DNA from: Paludibacteraceae bacterium | GTDB lineage: Bacteria > Bacteroidota > Bacteroidia > Bacteroidales > Paludibacteraceae | Direction: 5' to 3' | DNA length: 64,000 bases | Assembly (NCBI GenBank): GCA_024401455.1 | Contig: JAKSLA010000011.1 | Location: 1,894 to 65,893, forward strand | Shown: one piece after another, positions 1 to 51,252 of the stretch | Position numbering within the stretch: the stretch's first letter is position 1 | Layout of the letters: each line of letters starts with the position of its first letter | Program-made: the position numbers and the translations under genes | The notes under the pieces: model-generated | Told to the model about the DNA's origin: nothing | Seen by the model: only the letters and a program-made list of their open reading frames with translations | Databases searched by the model: none

Positions 1-1173
1 GTTGGAAGGAGTGTAATCTTTGACCGTTGTAATTGAGTCTTTGAATAACTTGTGAGTATGTTTTGCTAAAGAAAAGTATGTCTCGTATTTGTAGCAAAGT
101 TCTTCTATCTTTGGATTGATGTCTTCATCCACTAAAGTAATCTTTGTCCTGATGTTCTTTGTGACAAAGTTAGGGTAGTGGGCGATTTGAGCTGCAAGCA
201 ACGCCAATGATTCAGCCATCTTTGACATTCCTATTATTACGAAATGGACGTGTCGTGTTGTCTCGTCTGATATTCCTGTTCTATCTAACGGCAGGTAGTG
301 GATGCCACTTTGGGGACTCTTGTTGTCAACCAATACAATTTTAGCCCATGATTCTTCAAAATTGATAGACGAGAATTCGATGTCTGCTTTTTGAGTCTCT
401 GTCAGGACATTCGACGAGCGTGTCAGAGCATACGCGTTTAGGTCGGAAATGTTAACATAGCAGCGGGGTTTCTTTCTCGTCTTTTGGCAAATTGAAGAAA
501 TCAGTTCCAAACATCTTAAATTTTTCAAGTCACCATCAGTCTCGTTAGGTTGTCCTATAATATATACTTCGGAAGCAAAAGGAATATTCAAAGATCCCAA
601 ATCTTTTAATGAGTTTCTGTTGCCTCTAAGGAAGATAACTTTGTTTTCGTACCCTTTCTCCAAATCGCAGAGTAGAGTATAGCGCAGAGATGAAACATCC
701 TCATTGGTCATCAATGCAATGAGTGATTGTGGATGTTTTTTTAGCATCTGTTTGATCAGAATGGGGGTACAAATGTCTCTTCCACAAATCACGATATGCC
801 CTTTAAAAGAATAATGCAATAATCCATGTTTGAAGTGGTCTGCTCTTTTTCTCATAATGTTGGCTAATGTTGCAATTACGAGTCCACTCCAGACAACCAC
901 ACCAATAAGATAAACTAAAGCAAGAAAAAAAGTATATAATAAAGGAAATGACTCTAATTCCGTAGCGTCTTTTAGGGAAGAGGACGAGATCATGTTAAAA
1001 AAAGTCTTGTAAAAAGACTTTGAAAATGTTTCGTCTGTGAATACATTCTCTATTGTGGCAAGTAGGGTGCAGAGAAAGAGAAAGATGCATATGATAAGAC
1101 CAAATTGGACTTTCAATTTTCCCGATAAAGACTGGTCGAAACGGAGTTTGATGTTTTCTATAAATTGTCCCAT
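1..1173 (-). CDS. Membrane protein with two Rossmann/TrkA-N (RCK)-like nucleotide-binding domains; the C-terminus runs off the window
   Basis: Absent from the ORF track because it is open at nt 1. Checked by hand: ATG at 1173-1171 and no in-frame stop down to nt 1 (391 codons). Two hydrophobic stretches near the N-terminus (GLIICIFLFLCTLLATI; LLYTFFLALVYLIGVVVWSGLVIATLANI). These are followed by GHIVICGRD and later VHFVIIGMSKMAESLA, which look like Rossmann starts. No TVGYG-type K+ filter seen. Confidence 0.6.
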   Translation of the reverse strand, partial: MGQFIENIKLRFDQSLSGKLKVQFGLIICIFLFLCTLLATIENVFTDETFSKSFYKTFFNMISSSSLKDATELESFPLLYTFFLALVYLIGVVVWSGLVIATLANIMRKRADHFKHGLLHYSFKGHIVICGRDICTPILIKQMLKKHPQSLIALMTNEDVSSLRYTLLCDLEKGYENKVIFLRGNRNSLKDLGSLNIPFASEVYIIGQPNETDGDLKNLRCLELISSICQKTRKKPRCYVNISDLNAYALTRSSNVLTETQKADIEFSSINFEESWAKIVLVDNKSPQSGIHYLPLDRTGISDETTRHVHFVIIGMSKMAESLALLAAQIAHYPNFVTKNIRTKITLVDEDINPKIEELCYKYETYFSLAKHTHKLFKDSITTVKDYTPSN

Positions 1174-1179
1174 TTGTTT

Positions 1180-2466
1180 TTATTTTTTTGAGCCATCCAT
1201 TCCGAATACGATTTGGGATGAATGTACACCTTTTGTGATTAGATATTTTTTTATTCTATATAAGAATGTGACTTCTTTCTTTTTTGCGTTGACATTATCA
1301 AGATCCAGATGCTTCCCTTCGCTAAATATTACAACCTTTTCTATGGGGTTTTCCATCATAGATTTGGCAATCATATTCAGTTTCCTTTCTACATCTGCGC
1401 TGAACTCTTCGTTTAAAGGTTCTCTAATGTAAAAGGTTGCTTTAACGCCATGTGTACAGATAAGTCTTACTTTCCTTCCTTTAAACACGGGCTTGGAAAC
1501 TTTTTGTGGAGCCACTATTGTATCGACTTTGATCTCTATGGAATCAACAAAGTCAATGCATGGAAGAGTGTCAATTACGGCCACTTCTTCTACGATGGTG
1601 TCTAATTCTATTTCGTTGATAAAAGGTATAGAGTCGTAATAGGTCTCCACATACTCTTTCCCATTCTTGAAGATAATTCCGATGTTTATTCCTGCCGAAA
1701 TGAGGTTGGCTTTGGTTGTTATTGCGGGAGAAAGTGCCGTGGATGTTGTCTTTGAAGCGTAATAGTTCTTATTGCCTTCCAAAAGGTTGGAGATGCCATA
1801 AGAGCAATATGCTCCTACATATAGTCTGCATTTATGCGTTATGTTTCTTGAAACACCCACTTCCACAAAAGGGGAGATTCCGAATCCTTGCATCCAAAAA
1901 TCGTGGCTGGTGTCAACTGAATCAGTATAGAACCCGTGGTTTGGCATGTCGTGGAACGTGATGTTAGGCTCAATATAATGGGCTGTGGTAGTCTGGTATC
2001 CTTTTTTGTCGAACGTGCGGCTTACGGGAAGGTTGAATGTGGCGCCAATGTTAGTTCGTAAATCCCACTTGTCATTCAGATCGAATCTGGTTCTGAAAGA
2101 CAATGGAATATCAATCGAAAACATCTTAATGTATTCATTTAATCTCACCTTTGTATTCAGTTGGTAGGTGAACTCATTTAGTGTGTCTTGGAGCACACCC
2201 GATAGCGAATCTTGCGAAAGCGAAAATTTCGTTCCGTGGAGATTGGCATATAACCCCACGCCCACGCCTATATGGTCGTTTAGGTAGTATGATTCAGTCA
2301 CACCCAATTTCCCTCCCATAGACAAATTCATCTCTCCTGCCTCTGGTGTGAATAGCATAGAGTGAATGCCTGCACCAAAGTCAACTTGAGTTTGGAATCC
2401 TTTTTGAGCGAACCCTTGAAGCGTCAACAGTAGGCAAATGCAATATGTGAATATAAGACGTTTCAT
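1180..2466 (-). CDS. Outer-membrane beta-barrel protein with a divergent OmpA-like C-terminal domain
   Basis: 428-aa ORF with signal peptide MKRLIFTYCICLLLTLQGFAQ. The N-terminal part is Gly/aromatic-rich and beta-strand-like. The C-terminal ~100 aa (VVIFSEGKHLDLDNVNAKKKEVTFLYRIKKYLITKGVHSSQIVFGMDG) resembles the OmpA_C pattern. It overlaps the upstream gene by 4 nt. Confidence 0.55.
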   Translation of the reverse strand: MKRLIFTYCICLLLTLQGFAQKGFQTQVDFGAGIHSMLFTPEAGEMNLSMGGKLGVTESYYLNDHIGVGVGLYANLHGTKFSLSQDSLSGVLQDTLNEFTYQLNTKVRLNEYIKMFSIDIPLSFRTRFDLNDKWDLRTNIGATFNLPVSRTFDKKGYQTTTAHYIEPNITFHDMPNHGFYTDSVDTSHDFWMQGFGISPFVEVGVSRNITHKCRLYVGAYCSYGISNLLEGNKNYYASKTTSTALSPAITTKANLISAGINIGIIFKNGKEYVETYYDSIPFINEIELDTIVEEVAVIDTLPCIDFVDSIEIKVDTIVAPQKVSKPVFKGRKVRLICTHGVKATFYIREPLNEEFSADVERKLNMIAKSMMENPIEKVVIFSEGKHLDLDNVNAKKKEVTFLYRIKKYLITKGVHSSQIVFGMDGSKK

Positions 2467-5400
2467 TTCAATACTACTATTTCTTTACTTATTATTCGTC
2501 CATTAGTTAACTTGGCATATACTATATAAAAACCTACAGGCAAGGTGAACGTCTGATCAAAAGACGTGTCCTTTGAATTTAACACGATGTTTCCTATGTT
2601 GTCAACAATCTGTATGATTTCGATATTTAGGTTGCCAAGGTCACTGAATAGGACATGGAACTTTGCATTTGCTTGGGCTGGATTGGGGTATATATCGACT
2701 GACGGAACTAACGTTAGGGACCTGAATTCCTCATTGATGAGTATAGGACAAGTTTCTATTGTTGAACCGTCTGTTTTCCATATTTTTGCGTTGTAGGCAC
2801 CGACTGATAGGCCACCTGGCTCGTAGAAATACTGATCTGTTTCTCCATATAGTTCCATTCCATCGCGATACCATTGATATGATACGAATTGAGTGTCTGC
2901 ATTGTTTATTGCTACGACATCATTCCATTCTTTTAATAGGAATGGAGTTACCTTGTCAAAAATTATAGTATCGCGGATGGTGTGCTTGCAATCATTTTTT
3001 GTGATTTTGATTGAGAGAACAGCACTATTATCGGTTGATGAAATTGTCACGTCCGCTGAGTCATGAGCCGTTAGGAATATGTCGTTTACATACCATTGGT
3101 ATGAATCTCCACCCGAAACTCTCACCTTGAATGGCACATTTTTACAGACGAATTCAGGCCTTTCGTAGTCAATTTCATTGTTTGTCGCTTGACATGGAGA
3201 CAAGAATAAATAAGGGTATCCGTTGTTAATATTGCTTGTGTCAGGTTGCCAAAGCATATACACGGAGTCATTTTGTTCCTCCACCCATGCATTGAGAGCT
3301 TCTATCAAATTGAATGTCCCAAATGTTTCTTCCTTCAGTATATATGTTCCGTTCGGACCTTTCTCAAAAGACACGTTTCCTTGTGGCCAACTAGAACCAG
3401 CATATTCTTCGAAGTAATATACATACGAAAATCCATAGGTGTCAGCAACAGCTCGATTAGATGAAGTCTTATAACAATTCACCACGTTGCGTCCATCAGC
3501 TTCTCCGACAAGATCATTACCCTCTACAGAACCAATGTTATAGCAATTTGCCACAAGAGACGTTGTGCGCCCCATTGTGCCTACTATTCCGCCTGCGGCA
3601 AAATGCGCATTGTGGAAGTCTCCAAATCTGCCTTCCCCAGACACCGTATTTCTATTGGCACAATTTATAATTTTCCCATAAGTAGCACCCGCAATGCCTC
3701 CTACTCCAAAACCATTAGCAACTACCTCACCATCGTTGATGCAGGCATTTATCAGTCCCGAATTTAGTCCAACAATTCCACCTGTCGAACTTTCTGAATA
3801 TTCTCCCTTGTGAATCATATTTATTGTACCCGAGAAGACACAGTTCTCAACAACTCCTGCGTTATATCCTACAATTCCACCAATGTATGAAGAAGATATT
3901 TTGGGAGTGATGACAGTCACTTCTCCGTCCGCAGAGCAATTTTTTACACAACCATGATTTTCAGCAACCAAAGACGCACGGTATATATTTCCTTCCAACG
4001 AGTCTGATATATATACGTCTTTTAGGTTTAGGTTATAAATGGAGCCTGAATTCGAGCTGAACATAGCTGCATTACTGTGACCTGCATTTTTTCCATAATC
4101 TTCTGTATGAATCTGAAGACCCACAATATTGTGATCCTGACCATCAAAGTTTCCTGCAAATGCAATTGGACTCCAAAATTTTCCACAGAGATACAAATCT
4201 TGGTTCAGCACTACTGTTTTCCCAGCCATAGTTGAGTCCTTTTGGCACTCTTTCCCAAACCAGACAAACGCTTCTGTGTTATTCAAAAAGATAGTGTCTC
4301 CCGCCTCTACATACGAGCCGGGACACTCCTTAACACTTTCTATCCATTTGCCATCATACGGTGAAAAGCAATCACCTTCTGATGATTCAGACTCTGAAGG
4401 CAAGAATTGGATGAGTATCCCATACTCCACATTTTGGCATGGATATTCTTTGGAAAAAATTTTCATTACGAATGTATTCCCCTCGATTACTCCAGTTAGT
4501 GGATTTCTCACTCCATACTTTCCATTTAGATAATCATCGTAATTGGGAGAGGGGAATGAAGGATAATCGAATCGCTCTCCTTGATATTCTACATAAACAT
4601 TATAGTCTTCTATATGAGACAAAACATTAGGGTTTATTATGTTAGGATTTTGTTCTAGTAGAGTTGGATAAATTCCATCTATAGCGTCATCTACATTATA
4701 AACAACAATTGGGTCTCCACCGAGACTTGTAACATCTAAAACTGTTACCGTTATATCAATGGTATCGTTGCGGCACACACCTTCTTGCGTGACTTGGATT
4801 CTTCTTTCTCCTGGAATCTCTGTGTTGAGACTTATTGTATTACCAGTTCCAGATACAACTTCTGCCCCATCTATATTCCAATGAAACTCTCCAGAAAGTA
4901 AGTAATCACTAGTTTCTGATTCTACCAAAATTTCCGCAGTTTCAAATGGACAATAGGTGTCTTGGTAAACCACATTAGGCTTAGCTGATCCATTTACTGT
5001 AATTTTGAAAGTGTTTCCACTTGAAATTATTGAATTTTCAGACCATAGTGAATAAGAATAAGTGGTTTCTCCGAGTTGGGTAAGGTCTGGCTTTGTTGAA
5101 ATATCTATAATACGTCCATACTCATCCAATATTTGGATTCCCCAACGAAATGGGTCAAATCCCCAATGATAATCATCTAAAGCCCTCCTTACGTACTCTT
5201 CCCAAGTTTTCGCATCTGGGTCATATTGACAAAATTCAACAGAGAACTCTGGCGGTTGTGGCAAATAATTGACAAACAATCTTTGTTCGCAGACAGCTGA
5301 ATTACCTGATGCATCGGTAAAGGTATAATATAGAGAGGTTTCCCCTGCGGGATAGATGTCATTGTATACATCAAGTTCGTCTGATCTGTTGAGTGTTGCA

Positions 5401-6227
5401 AATAATTCTCCATCGCATTCGTCAACAAAAGAAAGATGGTCAAGAACATATCCGAGTTTGTATTGTAACAAATCAAATCTTGCAACTTCAGGTTGGAATA
5501 CATCTATGTCGATATCGAAGATTCCGAGTCGGTCGCAATCAACTATTGGTGGAACATCATCTACGACTTCAATGGTTTGTTCTGCGATAGTTTGGTTGCC
5601 AAAGTAATCGGTGACAATATAAGCGATAGTGTGGGTGCCAGCCTTTGCTTGAAAGTATAAATCGCTGTAGTGCAACTCGACTTTTCCCTCTCCATCAAAT
5701 CTATATTCTATTTTTTCGATAGGAGAACAGTCTGTAATGAGCGACGTTATATACGAATAAGAGATAGTAAATTCACCGTAACAATCCTGAGAAAAAGGAG
5801 ATTTATCCGACATTCTATAGACTAAAGGATCCGAAGGAATGTTTACAATGGGTGAAATGGTATCTGCTATGTGGATGATTTCTATTGCTGTAAGAGTCTC
5901 GTTATGTTCATCGACGAAACGCCAAAGAATGGTGTCGATATATGTATAATCGTCGAATTGTATCAAGGTGTCGCGAGTTAAATAACCGATAAATAAACTT
6001 GTTGCGGTAATAGTACTAATAGAGTTGGTTGAAATTCCAATTTTCTTGATCAACTCTAATCCTTTAGTGGTGTATGTCGCTTGACAAAGTTCATTTCTGT
6101 AAATAATCGTGTCAAATCTTGGTACGTTCCAGTCTTCCCAAGGGTCCACATAATTATCTTGAGCATTTGAGACTCCTAATGCTAAAGACAAAAACAAGCA
6201 TAATATGTAGTAAAGTTTAGTCTTCAT
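2463..6227 (-). CDS. Large T9SS-secreted surface protein with HYR-like Ig domains, GLUG-motif repeats and a type A T9SS C-terminal sorting domain
   Basis: 1254-aa ORF with signal peptide MKTKLYYILCLFLSLALGVSNAQ. HYR-like segments include GTHTIAYIVTDYFGNQTIAEQTIEVVDDVPPIV and GETSLYYTFTDASGNSAVCEQRLFV. GLUG repeats include GGIVGYNAGVVENC, GGIVGLNSGLINAC, GGIAGATYGKIINC and GGIVGTMG. The C-terminus (IYPNPAQANAKFHVLF...GFYIVYAKL...IVVLK) is typical of T9SS sorting domains. Confidence 0.75.
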   Translation of the reverse strand: MKTKLYYILCLFLSLALGVSNAQDNYVDPWEDWNVPRFDTIIYRNELCQATYTTKGLELIKKIGISTNSISTITATSLFIGYLTRDTLIQFDDYTYIDTILWRFVDEHNETLTAIEIIHIADTISPIVNIPSDPLVYRMSDKSPFSQDCYGEFTISYSYITSLITDCSPIEKIEYRFDGEGKVELHYSDLYFQAKAGTHTIAYIVTDYFGNQTIAEQTIEVVDDVPPIVDCDRLGIFDIDIDVFQPEVARFDLLQYKLGYVLDHLSFVDECDGELFATLNRSDELDVYNDIYPAGETSLYYTFTDASGNSAVCEQRLFVNYLPQPPEFSVEFCQYDPDAKTWEEYVRRALDDYHWGFDPFRWGIQILDEYGRIIDISTKPDLTQLGETTYSYSLWSENSIISSGNTFKITVNGSAKPNVVYQDTYCPFETAEILVESETSDYLLSGEFHWNIDGAEVVSGTGNTISLNTEIPGERRIQVTQEGVCRNDTIDITVTVLDVTSLGGDPIVVYNVDDAIDGIYPTLLEQNPNIINPNVLSHIEDYNVYVEYQGERFDYPSFPSPNYDDYLNGKYGVRNPLTGVIEGNTFVMKIFSKEYPCQNVEYGILIQFLPSESESSEGDCFSPYDGKWIESVKECPGSYVEAGDTIFLNNTEAFVWFGKECQKDSTMAGKTVVLNQDLYLCGKFWSPIAFAGNFDGQDHNIVGLQIHTEDYGKNAGHSNAAMFSSNSGSIYNLNLKDVYISDSLEGNIYRASLVAENHGCVKNCSADGEVTVITPKISSSYIGGIVGYNAGVVENCVFSGTINMIHKGEYSESSTGGIVGLNSGLINACINDGEVVANGFGVGGIAGATYGKIINCANRNTVSGEGRFGDFHNAHFAAGGIVGTMGRTTSLVANCYNIGSVEGNDLVGEADGRNVVNCYKTSSNRAVADTYGFSYVYYFEEYAGSSWPQGNVSFEKGPNGTYILKEETFGTFNLIEALNAWVEEQNDSVYMLWQPDTSNINNGYPYLFLSPCQATNNEIDYERPEFVCKNVPFKVRVSGGDSYQWYVNDIFLTAHDSADVTISSTDNSAVLSIKITKNDCKHTIRDTIIFDKVTPFLLKEWNDVVAINNADTQFVSYQWYRDGMELYGETDQYFYEPGGLSVGAYNAKIWKTDGSTIETCPILINEEFRSLTLVPSVDIYPNPAQANAKFHVLFSDLGNLNIEIIQIVDNIGNIVLNSKDTSFDQTFTLPVGFYIVYAKLTNGRIISKEIVVLK

Positions 6228-9200
6228 TTTCTTCCTCGCTTTTCAATGAGTTTACAACTACGTTCCATCCGTTGAAATAGCCTTCTATAAAGTATCCTGC
6301 CTCATACCAAGTGAATTTGCCTACTCCGCACGGTTCGTTATTTAGCATATAGCCTTCGTATTTCCAGTTTTTGGTCTTTAATACCTTATATACAGGTAGC
6401 ATATTGCTTTCCATTAAAAGACTAAATGGAAATTTATATTCTTCTTTGATGGTGTCCTTTTTAGCAACCTTCTCTCCGTTAAGGTAGGTTATTATTACAT
6501 CACCATGCTCTGAGTACTCAATGGCCTTCGATGTAAAGCCTTTCTGTTGGGTGCTTTTCCCGTCCTTGTCCTTGTAGGCTACTTCAGACAGTCTTTGTTT
6601 GTCGTCGTATTTGAATTCTGTGCTGATTGTGACGTTTGAATTTTTGTCCAAGGCGTTAGATTTGACCAATTTATTGCTCTCGTAGATTAATGTGTCTTTG
6701 TATTTCCCCTCATACGATATAGGCTCCATCATGTCATCCAAATAGGAGATTGAAACAACTTTGCCGAATTCATCGTTTTCTGAATGCTTGATGGCGTATG
6801 GTTTCCCTGGTGTGTTGATTACGAATCCGTTAACGTCATAGAATATTTCATCGGTCTTAAACTTGTTGATGTCGTATTGTGTCTCTTTCCGTTGCCATCC
6901 TTCTATTCCGTTTACAGGAGTCTTTTCGTCGCTCTTAAAGTTTTCGGAAAGTACAATGTTGCCAAATGGGTCGAATGTGTTCTTCGTTATGATTCCCTCT
7001 GTTACATTCTTTCCGTCTTTGTTTTTGCAGATGGTCTTAGTCTTGTTGCTGAATCTGTCGTATTCATACAAATAAGTTTGCGCATTTCCAATCTGAGTAG
7101 GCATACCATGCTCATCCATGAATGATTCTTTTATCAAATTGTCTCTGCTGTCATAGGCATAGTCAACAATCGAATAACCTTTTTCTTTGTTGATTGTCAA
7201 TGAGTTGTCTTTCGCTAAATAACGACAAGAAATGAGGTTGCTGTTGTCGTCATATTGGTATTCTGCTTTTGCGTAACCTGCATTATTGTTGATGCTTTCT
7301 CCTTTGTTGTTGAGATTTGTGACGGATAAGATATTTCCTTTGTCGTCGTATTCGTATTTGTATGACACAACGCCAGAGGCGTCGTTGGTTGGCTCGCCTG
7401 TCTCTCCAAGGTTGGTCTTGAACGTTACCAAAGCGTAGTCGTTAGGATCGTTGTACTCGTTGGAATATCCTGAAATCGAATCGGCGCAGACAAAACTTGA
7501 ACCGTCATAAGTGTAGTAGCGACATTTCCCTATCATTCCCTTGTCGTTATTCTCGTATGAGACATGGGCAAATCCTTGCTTAATCGGATTGTTGTTGACA
7601 TCTAAATATGTTATCTCTGAAATGAATCCTCGTGAGTCGTATGTGTACATAATAGCATGATATTCGGCTTTCTGCATTTTGGAAATCAACGCCTTGTTCT
7701 GTTTTTGGTCGTAATATGATTTCTTGGACAGACGATTTTCGTTGTCATATTCGTTCTTTTCGACAGCATATCCGTAGTTGTTGTTCTCCAATTTTCCTTG
7801 AGGGTTGCAATACTGTTGTTCGGTCAGTTTTGAGTTCTTGTATAAATATTTGATTACGGAATTGTTCTGGCTGTCATATACGTATATGCCTTTTTCGTTG
7901 ATTGCCCCTTTTTCTTGAAGGAGTCCATCTGAAGACGATTCCATTTTATAGGTGTAAACGCAGTTGTTGTCTCTGTCTCTATTGCCCCATGCGTCATAGA
8001 AATCTACCTTGCAACGGTAGCCGTTTTCATCCAATGTGATTTTGACGTTGTTGGCTCCGTTTTTATATGATTGGATAGGGTAGCCTGCCGCGTTGGTGTA
8101 CAAACCAACGCATCCACGAAGTTTCCCGTCGATAATCTTATTGTCTGTGAACGAGAAACTGTATATTAGTTCCCCCTTCTTATTATATGCTTTTTGTTGG
8201 ATTATGTTTGAATTTGAAGCATCGGATATAAACTCCCAAGATACTACAGTCTTAAGCATCTTTTGGTATTTCTTGTCAAGATTTCGGAGCGAATTGGCAT
8301 CTGTCTCTAAGAATACTTGATTAAAGGCATTGTCAACATTAGGCAGAAGTAGCCCATTTACTGCAGTAACAGTCGTCCAATGTGAGCATAGCGCCCCCTT
8401 CTTTTCTAACTTATACGATAGAGGCCTATGCTTGACTTGTGATTCCGAGATGGAATTGATGCCTTCTGGCCACTCATAGCAAAGTACAACATCTTCGTAA
8501 TAAGCTACTTTATGAAAGAAGAATGCCCAATATATTCCTGCAATCAATGCGATTAATGAACCAACAGCAAAGAAGAGGATTTGGTTTCTTTTGTTTCGTT
8601 GGTGTAACTTTTTCTGAAGTCGCTCGTTCTCCTTCTTCTCTTCCTCGATACGTTTTTCTTCTTCCCTGTTGTCTCTTCTCGCCTTTGCCACTTTACAAAG
8701 GATGTCGTGAGTGTATTCCAATCGTTTGACGCCACTCCACTCTTCTTCGCGGATAAGTCTGCTTTGAAGCAAGTAATTCAATTCGTCCTTTGTGAGTCCG
8801 CTTGACAGCGCATCTTGTACGGACACGTTATCTCGAAATCCATCCTTGGTCATCAATACATCTTCCAAGTATTCTGCACTTTGGACAGAGATGTTTGATA
8901 TGGTATCGTTGTAATAGTCGTTTATAATATTGTCTCCCCATTCGTTGAGTAGGGATTTTGATATTTTTAACTCGTTTCTTGCAATTCTTCGCTTGTCCAG
9001 TTCGTGACAGAACAGTGACAATAATGCAGGTTCAACAATTTTGTTTCTCGCTCCAGCAATTTTATAGTTAGATTTGTATGAAAGTTTAGATATGATCGCA
9101 GAAGCTACATCTTCGGTGACGATGCCTTCTCCTGGATTAAGGACAATCTCCATTGCTTGCTCTTCTGTCAAGGCTTGCAGACTGTATCTGTTATGTTTGA

Positions 9201-9849
9201 ATGCAGGAATCTCGTTTGAACACTCTTCCAAGCGAGGAAGAAAGTCTTCTCTTAATGAGATGACTAAGCGGTAACCGTCGTTTTTTTCCAAGTAAGGACT
9301 TCTAATTCCTTGGGAATTAAGTTTTTCCTTGACTTTCTTCGGCATCTTTGCATCGCATAAGTCAGACAATTGAACAAAGAAATCGTCTATCTTGTCTTGC
9401 TTGGCTGATAAAGTATAGAGTTCCTCGAATTGGTCAAGGACGATTAGTGGGGTGAGAGGATAGTTTGATGAATCCCAAAACTGATTGCCATGGAAGTATT
9501 CCCATAGAGATGAGTCCGCACCTTCAACTATAACCTCTTTTTCTCCGTTGGTGTTCCTTAAAGCTTCCTCAATTGCGGATATGATTTGCTGAGTGTAGGG
9601 AATTTCGGATTCAACGTTGATGCGGATATAAACCGGCAAGAACCCCTTTTTGCGAAAGTCTTCAAAGATGCCTGCTCGTATGATGGATGTCTTTCCTATG
9701 CCGGAAGGACCATATATGATAGTCTGTATGTTGAATTGGATGTCAGACGACAGCTCCAAAATCTCTTTAGACCGGCCAAAAAACAGAGAAGAATCTGATT
9801 CTTCGTACGATGATAGTCCTATCCATCTGTATTGTAGGTTACTCTTCAT
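6217..9849 (-). CDS. STAND-type P-loop NTPase (nSTAND-like) with a single predicted TM helix, C-terminal YD (Rhs-type) repeats and a MORN-like tail
   Basis: 1210-aa ORF. N-terminus YRWIGLSSYEESDSSLFFGR, Walker A GPSGIGKTS, Walker B-like LIVLDQFEE, then VEPALLSLFCHEL. A charged coil (EEKRIEEEKKENERLQKKLHQRNKRNQ) precedes the hydrophobic ILFFAVGSLIALIAGIYWAFFF (aa ~424-445, nt ~8515-8580). At least 6 YD repeats follow (YTYDSRGFISEI, YEYDDKGNILSV, YQYDDNSNLISC, YAYDSRDNLIKE, YEYDRFSNKTKT, FKYDDKQRLSEV). The tail is WKYEGYMLNNEPCGVGKFTW. Confidence 0.8.
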   Translation of the reverse strand: MKSNLQYRWIGLSSYEESDSSLFFGRSKEILELSSDIQFNIQTIIYGPSGIGKTSIIRAGIFEDFRKKGFLPVYIRINVESEIPYTQQIISAIEEALRNTNGEKEVIVEGADSSLWEYFHGNQFWDSSNYPLTPLIVLDQFEELYTLSAKQDKIDDFFVQLSDLCDAKMPKKVKEKLNSQGIRSPYLEKNDGYRLVISLREDFLPRLEECSNEIPAFKHNRYSLQALTEEQAMEIVLNPGEGIVTEDVASAIISKLSYKSNYKIAGARNKIVEPALLSLFCHELDKRRIARNELKISKSLLNEWGDNIINDYYNDTISNISVQSAEYLEDVLMTKDGFRDNVSVQDALSSGLTKDELNYLLQSRLIREEEWSGVKRLEYTHDILCKVAKARRDNREEEKRIEEEKKENERLQKKLHQRNKRNQILFFAVGSLIALIAGIYWAFFFHKVAYYEDVVLCYEWPEGINSISESQVKHRPLSYKLEKKGALCSHWTTVTAVNGLLLPNVDNAFNQVFLETDANSLRNLDKKYQKMLKTVVSWEFISDASNSNIIQQKAYNKKGELIYSFSFTDNKIIDGKLRGCVGLYTNAAGYPIQSYKNGANNVKITLDENGYRCKVDFYDAWGNRDRDNNCVYTYKMESSSDGLLQEKGAINEKGIYVYDSQNNSVIKYLYKNSKLTEQQYCNPQGKLENNNYGYAVEKNEYDNENRLSKKSYYDQKQNKALISKMQKAEYHAIMYTYDSRGFISEITYLDVNNNPIKQGFAHVSYENNDKGMIGKCRYYTYDGSSFVCADSISGYSNEYNDPNDYALVTFKTNLGETGEPTNDASGVVSYKYEYDDKGNILSVTNLNNKGESINNNAGYAKAEYQYDDNSNLISCRYLAKDNSLTINKEKGYSIVDYAYDSRDNLIKESFMDEHGMPTQIGNAQTYLYEYDRFSNKTKTICKNKDGKNVTEGIITKNTFDPFGNIVLSENFKSDEKTPVNGIEGWQRKETQYDINKFKTDEIFYDVNGFVINTPGKPYAIKHSENDEFGKVVSISYLDDMMEPISYEGKYKDTLIYESNKLVKSNALDKNSNVTISTEFKYDDKQRLSEVAYKDKDGKSTQQKGFTSKAIEYSEHGDVIITYLNGEKVAKKDTIKEEYKFPFSLLMESNMLPVYKVLKTKNWKYEGYMLNNEPCGVGKFTWYEAGYFIEGYFNGWNVVVNSLKSEEENED

Positions 9850-9859
9850 GCTTATAATA

Positions 9860-11152
9860 TTAACGTGACTGCGAACGCAGATTCCTGATTGTTTTCTTGA
9901 TGTTTTCTTCTCTGTCTTCTTTCCTGAAGTCTAGAACATGCTTGTTCTTGAAGAAGTTGGTGATAATATCATTCCCCAAATCGACATCGTCGATGGCGAT
10001 AGGGTAGATGAATGAGTCTGAACCTCTCCATTCTATTTCTTCACTGGCCCATGTCCATTCTCGTTTGTAGAATCGTCTGCCTGGATTCAATACGTTTTTT
10101 GATAGAATAGGGATGAATGCCTTGCAATCTTCGATGTTTTTCTTGATTGCTTTCACATATTCATCACCTGGTTCAAGTGAGGCCTTGTCAAACCATACTC
10201 CAACCCCTAGTCGCTTGAATGTCTCTGCAATTTCGTTGGCCGTTTCAAAGTCTTCGCTGGCGTATGAGATGAAGATCTCCTTTTTGAGATCTTCGGATTT
10301 GAAATCTTTGTATCGGGTCACTAATTCAGAAATGAAGTTTTCCGCATCGTCGTGTATGCTTGTTCGCATTCGAGAAAGAAATCCGACCAATTGCTCGTCC
10401 AATTTGCTATCCGCAATCAACCCAATACGGGATGAACTGGCGGCATGAGACGACGTTTTCATTGAGTGTAGGAAAAATCTGAAAAGCCAGTTTGGATAAT
10501 TGCATCCGATTACCAACAGATATTTGTCTCTCAATAAATTGGATAACCTTTTAGGCCTATAACTTTCTGACATCCAATCTGACACAAAATCCAGCATGTC
10601 GTCATCTGACAGAACAAATGAGTTGGGACAGACGTTGGCTTTGCCAAATATTTGATAACAAGTGGGTTGGTGTTCGTCTTCTATGTCGTCTTTTGTGGTG
10701 TGCTTTTCGTAAGATAGATTTTTTACTTTTCCTTTCCCCCAAACAGACTCCATGACTTTGAATACGAACTGCCCAAACGAAGTCGTCAGTACAAGTTTGA
10801 ATTGATCGATTGAGAGTAGTTCTTTTAGTTGGTTGGAAAAAACGAATTGAGAACTTTCCATCTCCTTGAGAATTTGGCAAGTCTCATAGTATGGGTCGGA
10901 ATCAATGTTGTCCCAGTAGGGCTCGAAAAATTTGCTTGAAAGTTGAGTGACATCCAACTGATCTTGAATTCCCAATCTTTGTCCTAGTTGTTTTGCAATG
11001 TAGGCCTTAAAAGGCATTGGTTTGCCGTTCTCCGTCACATTGAACAATTCGTCTCCAATGATAGGTATCACATTGCCTTTTGATATTTCAGATAAAAGCA
11101 ACATCCACCCTCTATCGTTCAATTTGGTTGTCTTTTGCACAAATTCCATCAA
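9860..11152 (-). CDS. Two-domain protein: N-terminal SIR2-like (SIR2_2/DHS-like fold) plus C-terminal TIR domain
   Basis: 430-aa ORF. The C-terminal ~140 aa has TIR hallmarks: EIFISYASEDFETANEIAETFKRLGVGVWFDKASLEPGDEY...AFIPILSKNVL...REWTWASEEI. The N-terminal part follows the SIR2_2 block order: VIPIIGDELF / LVLTTSFGQF / YQIFGK..FVLSDDDMLDF / LLVIGCNYPNWLFRFF. Confidence 0.7.
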   Translation of the reverse strand: MMEFVQKTTKLNDRGWMLLLSEISKGNVIPIIGDELFNVTENGKPMPFKAYIAKQLGQRLGIQDQLDVTQLSSKFFEPYWDNIDSDPYYETCQILKEMESSQFVFSNQLKELLSIDQFKLVLTTSFGQFVFKVMESVWGKGKVKNLSYEKHTTKDDIEDEHQPTCYQIFGKANVCPNSFVLSDDDMLDFVSDWMSESYRPKRLSNLLRDKYLLVIGCNYPNWLFRFFLHSMKTSSHAASSSRIGLIADSKLDEQLVGFLSRMRTSIHDDAENFISELVTRYKDFKSEDLKKEIFISYASEDFETANEIAETFKRLGVGVWFDKASLEPGDEYVKAIKKNIEDCKAFIPILSKNVLNPGRRFYKREWTWASEEIEWRGSDSFIYPIAIDDVDLGNDIITNFFKNKHVLDFRKEDREENIKKTIRNLRSQSR

Positions 11153-11427
11153 AATATTCTTTGAGTTCGTTATTGTTCAGACTCTTCCTCTAAGCAATGA
11201 CGAAAAATTATTTGTTCTATGTTATAGTTTCTCAACGTTTTGCGAGATGTTTACTGATAGTTTATATTCCTAAATTGGGAATAGAAATTTAAAGTTTGGG
11301 TAATTTGCTGATGGCATAAACCTCTTTTTATTGATGGCAAAAATAGATAATTAGTTTTGGAACTGCAAGTTTCTCATTCAAAAATGATTTGCGAGCAACA
11401 TCCTAGAGTCAAGAAGCAAGTGCAATA

Positions 11428-12414
11428 TTAGTCAAAAAAACTGAAGAAACGCTTTTTAGGCGATTCAAAGTCGAGTTTTTCTCTAGGCCTGTCATTGATT
11501 TTAGCGACAATGAAAGCAAGTTTCTTGTCAGAAATAAAGTTCAGCTCCATCTCTTTAGGGATATACTGACGAATAAGTTTGTTGGCATTTTCGATGGCGC
11601 CCTTCTGCCAAGAGGAATATGGGTCAGCAAAAAAGACAGGGACCTTAAGTCTCTTGGAAATGGACAAGTGTTCAGCGAATTCCGAACCGTTATCGGTGGT
11701 GATGGTTTTAAGTGCGAAGCCTTTATAAGGGAGAAGAAGCCTCCAAACAACCGAAGCGAGGGCAGCCGCATTTTTCCCATTAGGGAGGTTAGCCGCAAGG
11801 ATGAAGTTTGTGCTGCGCTCCGTAAGAGTAAGTATGGCCCCTTTATTGCCAGGCCCAACAATCGTGTCCATCTCCCAGTCCCCAAAACGAGATCCATCGG
11901 CCTCTTTAGGACGCTCATGTATGCTGACCCTGCCGGGGATGTTTTTAGCCACCTGCTTGATCCAATGATGCCTATATTTCATTTTGTGCCTACAATGACT
12001 GGCGAGCACACCCGACTTGTCGTTTCTGATGATTTGGTAAATAGCCTCGTGAGAAACCTTTATGGAATAGTTCTTTTCAAGCCATCCAGCCGTTTGTCTG
12101 GGAGACCAATCCTTCGTTATGCAGTCGTTAATCAGCATGACAATTTCGGGTTTCAACTTCCTGTTTGAGGTCCTATGAGCCAGCTTTTTAGCTTTTTCGT
12201 CAGCGGCAACCCAATTGTATCCAGAACGGGAACCTCCATGCCTCTTGATTTCCCTACAAACTGTACTTTCGCTGACTTTTATGGCCTGAGCAATAGCCTT
12301 CAGCGACTTTTTTTCTTGTAATCCCAGATAAATCCCATATCTTTGCTCTCGGGTAAGATGATTGTACATATGCAATACAAAATTATCAAACCTATTGGAG
12401 ACTTCGGTCTCCAT
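11428..12414 (-). CDS. IS30 family transposase
   Basis: The ORF track gives 11428..12486, but the first 24 codons translate a palindrome. Likely starts are METEV (12414) or MYNHLTREQRYGIYLG (12369). It has an N-terminal HTH (SESTVCREIKRHGG) and a DDE-type core (WEMDTIVG...ITTDNGSEF...WQKGAIENANKLIRQY) typical of IS30. Confidence 0.9.
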   Translation of the reverse strand: METEVSNRFDNFVLHMYNHLTREQRYGIYLGLQEKKSLKAIAQAIKVSESTVCREIKRHGGSRSGYNWVAADEKAKKLAHRTSNRKLKPEIVMLINDCITKDWSPRQTAGWLEKNYSIKVSHEAIYQIIRNDKSGVLASHCRHKMKYRHHWIKQVAKNIPGRVSIHERPKEADGSRFGDWEMDTIVGPGNKGAILTLTERSTNFILAANLPNGKNAAALASVVWRLLLPYKGFALKTITTDNGSEFAEHLSISKRLKVPVFFADPYSSWQKGAIENANKLIRQYIPKEMELNFISDKKLAFIVAKINDRPREKLDFESPKKRFFSFFD

Positions 12415-12447
12415 TTTTGTTTTTTTTATATTGCTTCTTGATTTCCT

Positions 12448-12503
12448 AAAGAGTCGGATGAAGGATGCAGGGGCTAGCCCCTGCATCCTTCATCCGACTC
12501 TTT
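12448..12503. repeat. Perfect 56-nt palindrome inside the IS30 right end, just upstream of the transposase start
   Basis: AAAGAGTCGGATGAAGGATGCAGGGGC-TA-GCCCCTGCATCCTTCATCCGACTCTTT. The arms are exact reverse complements with the centre between 12475 and 12476. Confidence 0.95.
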
Positions 12504-12675
12504 TTCTTGCACTTCTAAATTGAAAGTACACATTTGCCATCTTTCCATTTTCTCCCCATTGCGAATTTTTATTCCGTTTTATTTGCAAAAGTCGAAAACA
12601 TCTTTAATTTTGTGGTAATAATAGGGTTGCCGTTTCTGAGACGGTAATTGGTGTATCATTTAAATTTAGTTAGGA

Positions 12676-34509: not shown

Positions 34510-35571
34510 TTATTTAATAGTTACCATGGTTGCACCAAATCCGTATTCGCGGAAAGAGGCATCTTGGTATGTGCAACTGCCGTATTTGGATTTGAGTTGT
34601 TTGATGATTTCGTTACGAAGCACACCCTCGCCTTTGCCGTGTATGAAGACAATCTTTTGACCTTTTCGGCTCATGTTTTCTTGCATTGTCTCGTTGAATT
34701 TTGAAAGTTGGTACTCCAACATATCCGCATTGCTGAGTCCGTTTAGATTGTCCAACAATTGACCGATGTGGAGGTCAATCTCGATGATGTCAGGGACGTT
34801 TTGCTTCTTTGAAACCTTGGCCGTGAATTTTGTCTCCTTGCTGCTGATGATTCTTTCCAAATCCTCTTCCTTGACTTCATCCTTTCCGTAAGCGACATCG
34901 TCTTTGATGACTTCGCAGAGAAGGGCGGCATCGTCGAAGAAGTCGTTGTCCACAAAACTGTGGAGTTTGTAGAATTTCACCGCGTTGATTTTTATATCTA
35001 CATTGTAGGTCGGCTTGATGCTGTACGACTTGCTTTGTTTCAAGGCGATGATTTGGATGTTGAGTTGCTCAATGTCGTTGAGTTGTTCTTTTTTCAACTC
35101 TTCGATAAAGATTTTGGTATTGGGTTGAATATATCCAGCCGAACGGCTCATGGCAATCTTCCCATTGCTTGATGCGATGTTGTAAGCGAGATAGTAGTTG
35201 CTGTCGTTGATGAGGTAAGCCTCGTATGAGGTGAATGACAGTTGCTTGATGTCCATCGGTACGAAGGCCAAGTGAACATTGAGTTTTTCGCCCTCGGCGG
35301 TCTCTTGTGGCTTGTATTCTTCTTCGTCATCCTCGTCTTTGGGAAGTTCTGGTTTTTTCTCCTCCAACTTCATCTTGCTTGGATCCTTGCGCTTTTCTTG
35401 CGTGTGGATGGTATTCTCCGTCTCAACAACGACACATTCACGGATGAGGGTTGGCATTCCGAATCCATCTTCATCTTCAACCTCCACCATCTCCTTGTTG
35501 ATGAACTTTTTCACTACGCCGCCTCCTGTGCTGTTGAGGAAGCGAACTCTATCTCCTATTTTTATTCCCAT
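34510..35571 (-). CDS. Smr (MutS2 C-terminal-like) domain protein, DUF2027-type N-terminus
   Basis: 353 aa. C-terminal Smr pattern IIEIDLHIGQLL...IVFIHGKGEGVLRNEIIKQLK. Confidence 0.75.
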   Translation of the reverse strand: MGIKIGDRVRFLNSTGGGVVKKFINKEMVEVEDEDGFGMPTLIRECVVVETENTIHTQEKRKDPSKMKLEEKKPELPKDEDDEEEYKPQETAEGEKLNVHLAFVPMDIKQLSFTSYEAYLINDSNYYLAYNIASSNGKIAMSRSAGYIQPNTKIFIEELKKEQLNDIEQLNIQIIALKQSKSYSIKPTYNVDIKINAVKFYKLHSFVDNDFFDDAALLCEVIKDDVAYGKDEVKEEDLERIISSKETKFTAKVSKKQNVPDIIEIDLHIGQLLDNLNGLSNADMLEYQLSKFNETMQENMSRKGQKIVFIHGKGEGVLRNEIIKQLKSKYGSCTYQDASFREYGFGATMVTIK

Positions 35572-49247: not shown

Positions 49248-50591
49248 TTACATTATTTTAGATGCAGCATAAAGAGGGATTATTTTTATGGTTCTCTCTC
49301 CATCTTTTATCTCGTTGAAATTTTCCAAGGAGCATCTTATGGCTTCCGTTAGATGCTTGTCCTTCATGAAAAGATGGAGACTTTTCATTTTCCCACTAGT
49401 GCCAGCTTTGCATTCGATAGGCAGCACTTTGAAATTTTTGCCTGTGATGTAGTCAACCTCAGAACATGCACCATCTTTTATGTTTTCCCAATAAAATAGG
49501 TCGTGAGAACTTGCTGGATTGCTGTGCTTTAACATTTCCCAACCCAAGAACAATTCGGCTAAGCCTCCTTTGTTTACTAGATCTGCAACAGATCCCGTCA
49601 CGATTAGTTCGGTCAACTCGTTTGCACCTCCTAAATCCAGATCTAAAATGCGCAATAAAAGGCCACTGTCTAGATAAAGATATTTTCTAAACTTATCGTT
49701 TATCTCCGCACCTAAGGGAAGTCCGTTAGCTGCAGTGTGGTTAACTCTTTTTATTATGCCTGCATCGCTTAGCATATTTAGAGCTTTTTTTATCTCTTCT
49801 GTTCTATAGCCGCCTTCCACTTTGTTGTAAACGAATTTCTTTCCGTTTTGGGCGACCACACTGAGAAGTGTATTACGAAGTAATTGGGGTGAGATTTTTT
49901 TTGAGTACTTTGCGAAATCGTCGTAGTAGGATGTTTGGATGTCGTCTAGTTCTGACTGACATAGTTTGTAGTCGTGTTTTTTTACCCACATAGCAACGCT
50001 TGCGGGCATACCGCCTATGATTAGGAAATTCCTGTATTGTGTTATCAGTTCGTTATGGATTGCATCGAACAAGGGGCTTTCTGCACTTGCCTCGCGTATT
50101 GCATCCACCCAATTATTTTTGCCGATTGCACAAAGAAATTCATTGAAGGAGAAAGGGTACATGAATAGTGATTTGATGCGTCCTACACCATACGAAGGCA
50201 TTTCTTTAAGAGTGAACTCTAATAAAGAACCAGCTGCAATGACGTGGAGTTCAGGAAAATCTTCTTTGAAAAACCATAGACTTTTTAATGCTTCAGGACA
50301 TGATTGTATTTCGTCCAGGAAAAGTAATGTTTTCCCTGGCTCTACATTTACACCCCAAAGCAATCCTAATTGTTTAGTGATGGTTCGCACATCCGTGTTG
50401 CTTTCAAAAAGAGTTTTGGTGTCGGGCCGTTTCTCGAAGTTCACTTCTAGGAAATATTCGAATTGTATGCCCAAGTTCCTGATCGCACACGATTTACCCA
50501 CTTGTCTTGCTCCTCTTAGTAATAGGGGTTTCCTGTTTTCGCTTTCTTTCCATTCGATTAGGAATTTGTCTATTATTCTATTTATGTACAT
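49248..50591 (-). CDS. AAA-family ATPase with a DUF4143 domain
   Basis: Walker A LLLRGARQVGKS and Walker B LLFLDEIQ. I prefer the MYINRIIDKF start (50591). The track N-terminal extension merely translates the tandem repeats. Confidence 0.85.
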   Translation of the reverse strand: MYINRIIDKFLIEWKESENRKPLLLRGARQVGKSCAIRNLGIQFEYFLEVNFEKRPDTKTLFESNTDVRTITKQLGLLWGVNVEPGKTLLFLDEIQSCPEALKSLWFFKEDFPELHVIAAGSLLEFTLKEMPSYGVGRIKSLFMYPFSFNEFLCAIGKNNWVDAIREASAESPLFDAIHNELITQYRNFLIIGGMPASVAMWVKKHDYKLCQSELDDIQTSYYDDFAKYSKKISPQLLRNTLLSVVAQNGKKFVYNKVEGGYRTEEIKKALNMLSDAGIIKRVNHTAANGLPLGAEINDKFRKYLYLDSGLLLRILDLDLGGANELTELIVTGSVADLVNKGGLAELFLGWEMLKHSNPASSHDLFYWENIKDGACSEVDYITGKNFKVLPIECKAGTSGKMKSLHLFMKDKHLTEAIRCSLENFNEIKDGERTIKIIPLYAASKIM

Positions 50592-50624
50592 AGTATGCTG
50601 ATTTTTATGCAAATATATTATTAA

Positions 50625-50711
50625 TTTGTAAAAATCGAGAGGAATAATGGTGCTATTTTTGTAAAAATCGAGAGGAATAATAGTGCTATTTTTGTAAAAA
50701 TCGAGAGGAAT
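50625..50711. repeat. 33-bp tandem direct repeat, 2.6 copies
   Basis: TTTGTAAAAATCGAGAGGAATAAT(G/A)GTGCTATT at 50625-50657 and 50658-50690, then a partial copy at 50691-50711. Confidence 0.95.
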
Positions 50712-51093
50712 GAGCTCTTGAGAATAATATTGGCTCTGTCCTATTTTGTGACTGATAACGCACAAGGTTAATCCCCTAACGGGGAATCGGTTTGTTCAAC
50801 GCATTGTGCATTGTGATTCTACCAACATTAAACGCCTAACGGCGTATATATGCCAATTTTAATTCTAAAAAGTACCGTGGCACGGAAATATTAGCTTGAG
50901 TAGTCTTCACTCCTCGTGTGTGTTTAACGCGCATTCGCCGTTAGGGTTTCATGTAGGTAGCCCATGTTTTATGTCCGACAGCATATTTTTTCGAAGATGT
51001 ATAAGATAGTTATACGGCTATGTAATAATATATGAGCGGAAGCGTAAAAAAATGTGGTACGATGGTTGTTTGATTGTGCGAATAAGATGTGAT

Positions 51094-51252
51094 ATGTTTG
51101 CAAAAACTAATTTAAATTTTATTGATATGCCAAAGAATACTAGTGACAAAGGATTATTACCTAAACCTAATAATGGAGGAGAGATAATAACTCCAAAACC
51201 CAATAAGCCAAAGATTGATCCCAAAACAGGCAAACAGATTTTGAACGATTAA
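51094..51252 (+). CDS. Candidate small peptide (52 aa; 41 aa from the Met at 51127), Pro/Lys-rich with an internal GG
   Basis: MFAKTNLNFIDMPKNTSDKGLLPKPNNGGEIITPKPNKPKIDPKTGKQILND. Its stop lies 10 nt before the radical SAM gene. Coding status unproven. Confidence 0.35.
   Translation: MFAKTNLNFIDMPKNTSDKGLLPKPNNGGEIITPKPNKPKIDPKTGKQILND

Follow-up and report, generated by a model that had tools for sequence, protein, structure and literature searches.

A SIR2-like/TIR and transmembrane nSTAND1 gene pair with exported proteins and a channel-like partner: a candidate envelope-monitoring conflict system in a Paludibacteraceae bacterium

This study concerns a cluster of five genes at the left end of a 64,000-nucleotide stretch of DNA (the window) from a Paludibacteraceae bacterium (assembly GCA_024401455.1, contig JAKSLA010000011.1, positions 1,894 to 65,893 of the forward strand). 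All five genes lie on the minus strand and are read in the order g1 to g5. The first gene, g1 (9860..11149), encodes a SIR2-like/TIR protein of 429 amino acids counted from the ATG at 11149, with the open reading frame (ORF) spanning 9860-11152. It is followed by g2 (6217-9849), the gene of an nSTAND1 ATPase, by g3 (2463..6227) for an exported surface protein of 1254 amino acids, by g4 (1180..2466) for an OmpA-like outer-membrane protein of 428 amino acids, and by g5 (1..1173) for an RCK channel-like protein, of which the N-terminal 391 of 636 residues are encoded before the gene is cut at the left window edge. The genes are separated by 10 nt at g1/g2 and by 6 nt at g4/g5, and they overlap by 11 nt at g2/g3 and by 4 nt at g3/g4; the ORF list reproduced exactly the coordinates given to the five genes in the initial annotation. 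Metagenome contigs L001-L004 encode a STAND protein identical to g2 together with the same gene set. The complete g5 gene, for a protein of 636 amino acids, is found on L001-L003, and since a convergent gene comes next on the identical contigs, the cluster ends at g5.

The same arrangement was found in more distant relatives. At 68% STAND identity (L005) and at 45% (L007), the SIR2-TIR and nSTAND1 genes are followed by genes for a protein with a type IX secretion system (T9SS) tail, an outer-membrane barrel and an RCK protein, with a small RyR-domain gene added in L007. At 37% identity (L008) the pair is followed by a Sel1-repeat protein and a distant RCK protein, and at 34% (L009/L010) by an RCK protein and a RyR gene. 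The tight junctions are retained at 68% and 45% STAND identity, and the flanking genes differ. Because the junctions and the gene order are kept amid different flanking genes, the clustering is not due to chance, and because the flanking genes differ at each locus, the cluster moves as a unit. These results confirmed that the five genes form one tightly packed, conserved cluster, as had been claimed from the window itself.

A wider view was obtained from a one-genome-per-species scan with the STAND alignment, which covered 80 examined loci and at least 429 relatives. Of the 79 informative loci, 75 have a g1-like gene with both halves immediately upstream of the nSTAND1 gene and in the same orientation. 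The pair occurs in at least eight phyla (Bacteroidota, Acidobacteriota, Pseudomonadota, Verrucomicrobiota, Actinomycetota, Gemmatimonadota, Chlorobiales and Thermodesulfobacteriota); its carriers among the Pseudomonadota include Beta- and Gammaproteobacteria, and the SIR2-like/TIR and nSTAND1 genes are both present in the cultured Paraburkholderia caribensis MBA4. No downstream gene was conserved across phyla among the scanned pair loci, and homologs of g3 and g4 were restricted to the closest relatives; at more distant loci the T9SS and OmpA genes gave way to a Sel1-repeat protein or to giant YD-repeat proteins, or had no counterpart. Thus, it is the pair of genes that is conserved, and the five-gene arrangement elaborates on it in one clade. 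The earlier idea of a hard-wired five-gene set did not hold, as the five-gene order is kept only in the close relatives L005 and L007; what the comparison of gene neighbourhoods supports across phyla is the core pair.

Two side observations were made on relatives of the pair. At two proteobacterial loci (L054 8393-9856 and L068 513-2081), a SIR2-like match lies on the strand opposite to the STAND gene and no TIR match was found; these loci may represent the pair after rearrangement or decay. At L005 (2595-7549), the relative of the operon adjoins three AAA-ATPase_like/PDDEXK_9 and AAA_14/DUF4143 genes, which are typical of Bacteroidales variable regions.

The g2 protein has three parts. Directly at its N-terminus is an nSTAND1 NTPase module (residues 1-420; 8590..9849, minus strand), which is predicted to be cytoplasmic. 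The match to Pfam PF20703 has an E-value of 2.5e-26 and a score of 93.6 bits against a cutoff of 27.1. The Walker A motif (GPSGIGKTS at residue 47) and the Walker B motif (DQFEE at residue 139) are intact, and both motifs (GxxGxGKT/S and DQFEE) are invariant in the alignment of STAND homologs, in agreement with the STAND assignment made for g2. The NTPase module is followed by a single transmembrane (TM) helix recognised by hydrophobicity (residues 424-445, ILFFAVGSLIALIAGIYWAFFF; 8515..8580, minus strand). In essentially all full-length homologs of any phylum, a TM helix is found about 420-450 residues after the start of the NTPase, and among the homologs the 15 residues flanking it hold on average 5.4 Lys and Arg residues before the helix vs 2.3 after it. 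By the positive-inside rule, the g2 homologs are predicted to adopt an N-in/C-out topology with a repeat sensor of 420-1150 amino acids outside the cytoplasm. An N-in/C-out single-pass topology is shared with PknB-type kinases and some anti-sigma factors.

The third part of g2 is a C-terminal region of about 765 amino acids (6217..8514, minus strand) with YD/RHS-type repeats and a MORN-like end, predicted to be extracytoplasmic and to be a putative sensor. The RHS repeats proposed earlier were recovered as an RHS_repeat match that is weak and above the cutoff, together with seven Y.YD motifs. Among the homologs, the post-TM region (420-1150 amino acids) has a mean column identity of 11% and diverges much faster than the NTPase. 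It carries YD/RHS and MORN-type repeats in the clade of the window, and WD40 propellers in 20 of 65 homologs, from other phyla. A hypervariable and modular region of this kind is the behaviour expected of a sensor module. None of the 120 listed STAND homologs (of 372) had a TIR or SIR2 Pfam fusion.

The g1 protein combines a SIR2-like domain (about nt 10427-10795, minus strand; Pfam SIR2_2, E-value 3e-8) with a TIR domain (about nt 9896-10276, minus strand; Pfam TIR_2, E-value 4e-19), and the TIR assignment was upheld by the latter match. In the alignment of 78 family members, F299, S301, Y302, D327, F351, E370 and P389 of the TIR half are invariant, and W371 and A374 are each present in 77 of 78. 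Sequence matches in the PDB include the NADases AbTIR and PdTIR, with alignments that end at or before the catalytic motif. E370 was at first taken as the catalytic Glu, and this choice was judged unsafe after comparison with the PdTIR and AbTIR motifs.

The SIR2-like half shows a different pattern. Its profile score for SIR2_2 (PF13289) exceeds the cutoff, so the SIR2-like call holds at the level of the profile; the canonical catalytic Asn (TTNYD-type) and His (LHG-type) were not found in the family alignment. When the motifs were mapped by inspection, the Asn site (position 130) was occupied by T in 58 of 78 and S in 11 of 78 members (TTSFG in the window), and the His site (position 174) by F in 39, L in 30 and M in 6 of 78 (QIFG in the window). 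Since T or S replaces the Asn and F, L or M replaces the His, the SIR2-like half of g1 is read as a putative adaptor or regulatory pseudo-enzyme.

At the other end of the cluster, g5 was identified by Pfam as Slo-like_RCK, and its distant relatives as TrkA_N. The AF2 model of g5, built with 31 homologs, has a pLDDT of 88.6 and a pTM of 0.84. Full-length GsuK, with crystal forms bound to NAD+ and to ADP among the matches, ranks first in Foldseek (558 columns, E-value 5e-10); Slo1/BK, the CASTOR gating ring and MthK come next. The N-terminus is laid out as TM1, pore helix and TM2, and is followed by tandem RCK domains; the second RCK domain and a RyR-like domain fall outside the window. The RyR-like domain comprises the C-terminal 90 residues, with the motif VEHNRWN...GYRP...AH.DI.PY..L...D. 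In an hhalign comparison with PF02026 proteins that adjoin g5 homologs, this region gave a probability of 85% and an E-value of 6e-6, with the H, W, H and D positions aligned, and H563, W566, H602 and D622 of g5 are invariant or nearly so in the family. Phage RyR-domain proteins (RyDEP) are reported to bind and cleave 2'/3'cADPR (cADPR, cyclic ADP-ribose) via H75, W78, H100 and D117 (PMC13232231). Taken together, the profile matches and the model indicate that g5 is most likely a GsuK-like RCK channel homolog with a RyR-like domain, and it is the most likely effector of the cluster. The initial annotation had described g5 as a Rossmann-domain membrane protein; its membrane character and its RCK (KTN/Rossmann) domains were both recovered, and the notion of a generic envelope protein gives way to that of a GsuK-like channel homolog.

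Between the pair and g5 lie the two exported proteins. The N-terminus of g3 is signal-peptide-like, and Pfam gave a Glug match that passes the cutoff (E-value 1.6e-7), a HYR match just under the cutoff in a HYR/Ig-like region, and a Por_Secre_tail match of 21.5 bits against a gathering score of 27. The homolog in L005, at 68% identity, scores 32 bits for the same tail. Thus, of the three domain calls made earlier for g3, GLUG is confirmed, and HYR and the T9SS sorting domain are below threshold in this copy, the latter passing in the L005 homolog. Homologs of g3 are confined to L001-L007. The window also encodes a 952-amino-acid Ig-like protein with a CHU_C-type T9SS signal at 38486-41344, and a DUF2027-Smr protein at 34510-35571; the presence of such CHU_C-type cargo means that the organism uses a type IX secretion system.

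In the g4 protein, a signal peptide precedes a small beta-barrel, and a disordered linker leads on to an OmpA-like C-domain that is degenerate and truncated. Pfam detected OMP_b-brl_2 only (E-value 9e-9), and the C-domain of the window copy had no Pfam or PDB sequence match. After these negative searches g4 was considered not to be OmpA-like, and this view was overturned by remote homologs and by the structure model. In an exhaustive HMMER search, OmpA (PF00691) was present in 11 of 16 aligned remote full-length homologs, and the family consensus ends GHT..G...RA...NRR.E, with the GHTD, RA and NRR motifs degenerate or missing in the window copy. The AF2 model has a pLDDT of 77, and of more than 90 in the barrel; the linker is disordered, and the C-domain is a small alpha/beta domain. 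Its top Foldseek matches are OmpA, including full-length OmpA over 408 columns. The OmpA-like call for g4 is therefore probably right by homology, the C-domain of this copy being undetectable by sequence, and peptidoglycan binding is doubtful. Very few close relatives of g4 exist (a word-index search gave two proteins only), and one source names it as a PorT family protein of a Paludibacteraceae metagenome-assembled genome (MAG). Both g3 and g4 are clade-specific accessory genes. Across the Bacteroidota loci, the genes in the middle slot between the STAND gene and g5 all start with a signal-peptide-like sequence, whether they encode T9SS cargo, an outer-membrane protein, Sel1-repeat proteins or giant YD-repeat proteins. 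An all-exported middle slot matches the predicted location of the STAND sensor, and this is the main independent support for the idea of envelope monitoring.

In other lineages the pair has other partners downstream. Among clustered neighbours, a SLATT protein with two TM helices was found at L019, L022, L042, L066 and L093, a patatin phospholipase at L019, L022, L042, L090 and L093, a TPR-S protein at L028, L031 and L053, and cyclase-domain proteins at L023, L026, L031 and L039. The SLATT and patatin genes stand beside the pair in Acidobacteriota, Verrucomicrobiota and other lineages, convergent at some loci and co-directional at others. The cyclase-domain genes are tandem adenylate/guanylate-cyclase-domain genes that follow the pair in Betaproteobacteria and unclassified Proteobacteria MAGs. 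At L034 (19886-24011; Bacteroides ilei) and L071 (16976-18352; a Bacteroidales MAG), Ser/Thr kinase-, PP2C phosphatase- and FHA-like genes, labelled from N-terminal motifs alone, lie downstream of the pair and giant YD-repeat proteins.

We propose, with moderate confidence, that the locus is an NLR-like, envelope-monitoring conflict system, most probably one for anti-phage abortive infection, with TIR signalling and a channel effector. The surveillance of the envelope, which had been suggested as a hypothesis from the gene content, has gained support from the single-pass g2 with its predicted outside sensor and from middle-slot proteins that are all exported. According to this proposal, the periplasm-facing YD-repeat half of g2 would sense a cue on the envelope side, and g3 at the surface and g4 in the outer membrane, with its periplasmic domain, may broaden or adjust the sensing in the direction of the outer membrane and the cell surface. 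Engagement of a ligand would lead to NTP-dependent oligomerisation of the cytoplasmic NTPase modules of g2. The g2 oligomers would then recruit and cluster g1, with the SIR2-like domain as a putative adaptor or regulatory module, and the TIR domain of g1, activated by proximity, would cleave NAD+ and/or make an ADP-ribose (ADPR)-derived nucleotide. The tetrameric-channel-like g5 may bind the TIR product or sense the drop in NAD+, open, and collapse the membrane potential, and this depolarisation would arrest the infected cell. The SLATT and patatin proteins would take the role of g5 in other lineages.

Several observations weigh against this proposal. In the TIR half of g1, the position of the canonical catalytic Glu (W+4) is I, V or L throughout the family, and at W+5 (position 376) 46 of the 78 members have D and 22 have E. 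Because W+4 is hydrophobic and D or E stands at position 376 in 68 of 78, NADase or cyclase competence of the g1 TIR domain is plausible rather than established. The topology of g2 is predicted from two sequence features, hydrophobicity and charge bias, and WD40 sensors are unusual outside the cytoplasm. The TVGYG K+ filter is absent from g5, where the family has DPGN and the clade of the window ISSSS or ISPVS; without a K+ selectivity filter, conduction by g5 is putative. Pfam calls no RyR domain on g5, and the top PDB profile matches of its C-terminus, RyR1 repeats and 3NRT (a Bacteroides "putative ryanodine receptor"), have marginal E-values of 0.1-0.2. A search of a phage collection gave no STAND homolog, and no close relatives borne by phage or plasmid were found. 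Most phyla carry the pair without g5 or any conserved third gene, and the largest human-gut clusters of g5 homologs consist of a RyR gene and g5 with no detectable TIR or STAND gene. Since the pair occurs without g5 and g5 with RyR occurs without detectable TIR, the two modules may be separable.

In a metagenome scan with g5, 80 loci fell into 32 clusters at 90% identity. A stand-alone RyR gene adjoins g5 in about 18 of the 32 clusters, a TIR gene is in the locus in about 10 (six directly downstream), nSTAND1 is directly upstream in two (L149 and L159), and seven have none of the three. Thus g5 and RyR form a cassette, and TIR proteins are coupled to it often, though not in every case. Distant g5 homologs adjoin TIR proteins without any STAND gene, and a TIR gene is also close to the g5 homolog in L013. 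Two further arrangements were seen. The two-gene cassette of RyR and g5 without TIR or STAND is found at L127, L119, L101, L153, L162, L141 and related human-gut loci, and may answer signals made in trans or act alone. At L011 (10001-18188), a g5-like gene, a RyR gene, a TIR-WD40 gene (947 amino acids), a 280-amino-acid protein without assignment and a TIR-WG_beta_rep gene (601 amino acids) form an array that resembles a Thoeris-like locus with more than one TIR gene and a channel as effector.

These data bear on the main rival explanation, in which separable modules share an island: a self-contained NAD+-depleting pair, an independent RCK-RyR cassette, and ordinary co-transcribed g3 and g4. 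We consider this possible, at clearly lower probability than the proposal above. It fits the finding that most loci outside Bacteroidales have the pair without a conserved third gene, that the most abundant gut g5 clusters carry RyR and g5 only, that g5 lies upstream rather than downstream of the pair in L034, and that g3 and g4 homologs are limited to close relatives. On the other hand, loci with STAND identities from 68% down to about 34% repeat the order of pair, exported protein(s) and g5 in varied contexts, with reading frames that overlap or nearly abut, and nSTAND1 is also directly upstream of g5 in the independent metagenome loci L149 and L159. The conserved order, the overlapping frames and this independent adjacency argue for functional coupling in Bacteroidales. 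The direct pairing of g5 relatives with other TIR proteins, and the all-exported middle slot that fits the predicted sensor location, also speak against mere co-residence.

The neighbours of the pair offer a further view of its role. When 126 randomly sampled neighbouring ORFs were compared with the PADLOC models at an E-value of 1e-10 or lower, four matched patatin effector models and one each matched Cas5e, PD-T4-6, mad6 and a kinase model. At about 6% of the sampled neighbours, a raw share without background control, the defence-island signal is modest. A second rival explanation names a trigger other than phage: attack by other bacteria through the type VI secretion system (T6SS) or contact-dependent effectors, or injury to the peptidoglycan or outer membrane, would lead to dormancy, death or a protective ion flux. 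A predicted periplasmic sensor in g2 would suit such a trigger, and so would the two accessories, an OmpA-like protein that spans the outer membrane and has a periplasmic domain, and a T9SS cargo anchored at the surface. YD/RHS repeats are a typical feature of proteins used in conflict between bacteria, and neither phage-encoded relatives nor a counter-defence context was seen. Even so, we regard it as unlikely, because nearly all characterised combinations of TIR, STAND, SLATT and patatin are anti-phage, because the neighbours include homologs of Cas5e, PD-T4-6 and mad6, and because no T6SS or immunity genes are adjacent to the pair in the loci inspected.

The locus could also be a housekeeping operon for signalling or ion homeostasis with no immune role. 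Here a membrane ATPase receptor would answer cues from nutrients or the surface by regulating a K+-channel-like protein, with the TIR and SIR2-like domains serving only as scaffolds for protein interaction. The catalytically degenerate SIR2-like domain, the canonical TIR Glu that is not cleanly conserved, the resemblance of g5 to physiological RCK channels, and the ordinary chromosomal genes that flank the cluster in the window would all agree with this. It is the least probable of the alternatives, and we give it little credence, since the distribution is patchy, the genomic context variable, the G+C content lower and the sensor domain hypervariable. In addition, the genes associated with the pair (SLATT, patatin and RyR) are of kinds typical of immunity by nucleotide signalling, and g5 has no K+ selectivity filter. 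An immune, envelope-monitoring system remains the reading that we favour.

The locus was then compared with known systems. In PADLOC, g1 had only generic TIR matches confined to the TIR region, and there was nothing for g2-g5, with g2 having no match at an E-value of 0.1 or lower; therefore, the locus is not a catalogued system there. Nothing scored above the cutoffs when the five proteins were compared with NCBIfam. We found no description in the literature of a SIR2-like/TIR and TM-nSTAND1 pair, of an extracytoplasmic sensor, or of coupling to an RCK-RyR channel, and a 2025 preprint mentions "transmembrane STAND ATPases" once, in passing. These searches agree with the initial annotation, to which no described system with this architecture was known, and the parts are all of known kinds: STAND, TIR, RCK channel, RyR domain, OmpA and T9SS cargo.

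Like Avs and bNACHT, the pair has a STAND NTPase of the P-loop type in which the Walker motifs are intact, a repeat sensor that is hypervariable, and output domains of the TIR/SIR2 type, directed at NAD+; oligomerisation induced by a ligand is presumed. Unlike them, the NTPase of g2 belongs to the nSTAND1 clade and matches no Avs or bNACHT model of PADLOC. Two further features set it apart from Avs: the effector is not fused to the N-terminus, g1 being a separate gene 10 nt upstream of g2, and a conserved TM helix stands between the NTPase and a sensor predicted to be extracytoplasmic, whereas Avs proteins sense terminase or portal in the cytoplasm. The nSTAND1 family of conflict systems was defined in 2021, with TIR among the associated output domains and a predicted role against invaders (eLife 2021, PMC8195603). 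The present locus resembles the systems described there by Kaur, Iyer, Burroughs and Aravind in the NTPase family (PF20703) and in the TIR association, and differs from them in that they use EAD/Death-like adaptors or fused effectors and sensors diversified by FGS/DGR (PMC8195603). No EAD/Death-like Pfam domain was found on g1-g5, where very divergent EADs could evade Pfam, and no description of a separate SIR2-like/TIR partner gene, a TM helix or an RCK-RyR channel was found in that paper (PMC8195603). The suggested kinship with "ternary" nSTAND systems was not borne out, since those use vWA-MoxR, iSTAND or EAD components that are absent here.

A second comparison is with Thoeris, in which TIR with SLATT (type VII, signalling by cADPR) and TIR with an ion channel (type X, signal unknown) are validated types (bioRxiv 10.64898/2025.12.03.692087); that preprint set aside TIRs in Avs (AVAST) proteins. 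As in types VII and X, a TIR protein is encoded close to a putative membrane effector, and the g5 family and SLATT mirror the two effector classes; the RyR-like pocket of g5 also suggests an ADPR-type ligand, as in Thoeris. The difference is that in Thoeris the TIR protein is its own sensor and there is no STAND protein, whereas here a SIR2-like-fused TIR is almost always paired with nSTAND1. The TIRs listed for type X are ThsB-like and unrelated in sequence to g1. Since the supplementary tables give TIR sequences only, we did not equate g5 with the type X effector.

For g5 itself, the likeness to GsuK, MthK and Slo lies in a 2-TM pore-like N-terminus and two RCK (KTN/Rossmann) domains per chain, and the differences are the missing TVGYG filter, the extra RyR-like C-terminal domain and the conflict-system gene context. 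The C-terminus of g5, which Pfam does not score as RyR, aligns with RyR-domain proteins (PF02026) and has H, W, H and D at the positions that contact the ligand in RyDEP (PMC13232231). Unlike RyDEP, which is phage-borne and a free dimeric enzyme or sponge, the RyR-like domain of g5 is fused to a channel-like protein and encoded by the host.

Upstream of g1 lies an IS30-family element of about 1128 bp (about 11402-12529; bounds from alignment with IS-free contigs). It encodes a transposase with the HTH_38 and rve domains of Pfam at 11428-12486, and a transposase with HTH_38 and rve (DDE) in an element of about 1.1 kb places it in the IS30 family. The insertion is about 250 bp upstream of the g1 start, within a 395-bp intergenic region, of which the remnant between g1 and the element (11150..11401, minus strand) matches the IS-free contigs up to the insertion point. 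Contigs L001, L002 and L004 are without the element and are otherwise near-identical upstream of g1, with 1 mismatch in about 300 aligned bases. The insertion is thus recent and strain-specific. The presence of an IS30 element just upstream, as annotated at first, was confirmed by Pfam; its relevance to an island was not, and we rejected it as a part or marker of an island because it is absent from otherwise identical contigs. The insertion could change the expression of the operon. A perfect 20-bp hairpin at 12453-12498 within the element overlaps the 5' end of the transposase ORF.

The cluster was also said to be AT-richer than its surroundings. Its G+C content is 39.5%, 5 points below the 44.5% of the remaining window; the direction of the claim is right and would fit acquisition of the operon, the difference is modest, and the window has other low-GC patches. 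One of these, at 49248-55195 (about 38% G+C), encodes an AAA_14/DUF4143 ATPase, a radical-SAM/SPASM protein, an amidohydrolase and an unannotated 391-amino-acid ORF; it could be a further island that was acquired, or a cluster for peptide modification. Between the IS30 element and g1, at 11345-11338, stands a Bacteroidetes-type -7 motif, TATTTTTG; because the motif count across the window barely exceeds chance, it is a candidate promoter only. Scans of the window for sigma-70 promoters, terminators and the Bacteroidetes -7 motif gave counts at or near chance, and a single transcript is therefore neither proved nor refuted. Scans of the 64-kb window for tRNA genes and Rfam families were both empty.

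Characterised bacterial STAND/NLR-like defences sense phage proteins in the cytoplasm. As a more speculative extension of our proposal, which we hold only tentatively, the locus would follow the logic of a Toll-like receptor on an NLR chassis, with a repeat sensor outside, a TM helix, a STAND switch and a TIR enzyme whose ADPR-derived product gates a RyR/RCK channel. If true, it would be the first immune receptor in bacteria for which detection of invaders from outside the cytoplasm has been shown, and signalling from cADPR to RyR-type channels would have a prokaryotic precedent. A sensor predicted to lie across the membrane, in a family with at least 429 candidate stretches, would raise the question of what bacteria can perceive at the cell surface or in the periplasm before a genome is injected or while this happens. 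In the Bacteroidales version, a GsuK-like channel homolog with a RyR-like pocket would provide a testable link between TIR signalling and the gating of an ion channel, in line with the recent reports of cADPR isomers bound by RyR domains and of phage defence by operons of TIR and an ion channel. Cultured carriers of the family are available in Bacteroides ilei Marseille-P3208, Paraburkholderia caribensis MBA4 and Mycolicibacterium porcinum. Its members are frequent among the Bacteroidales of the human gut, whose defence systems are poorly charted.

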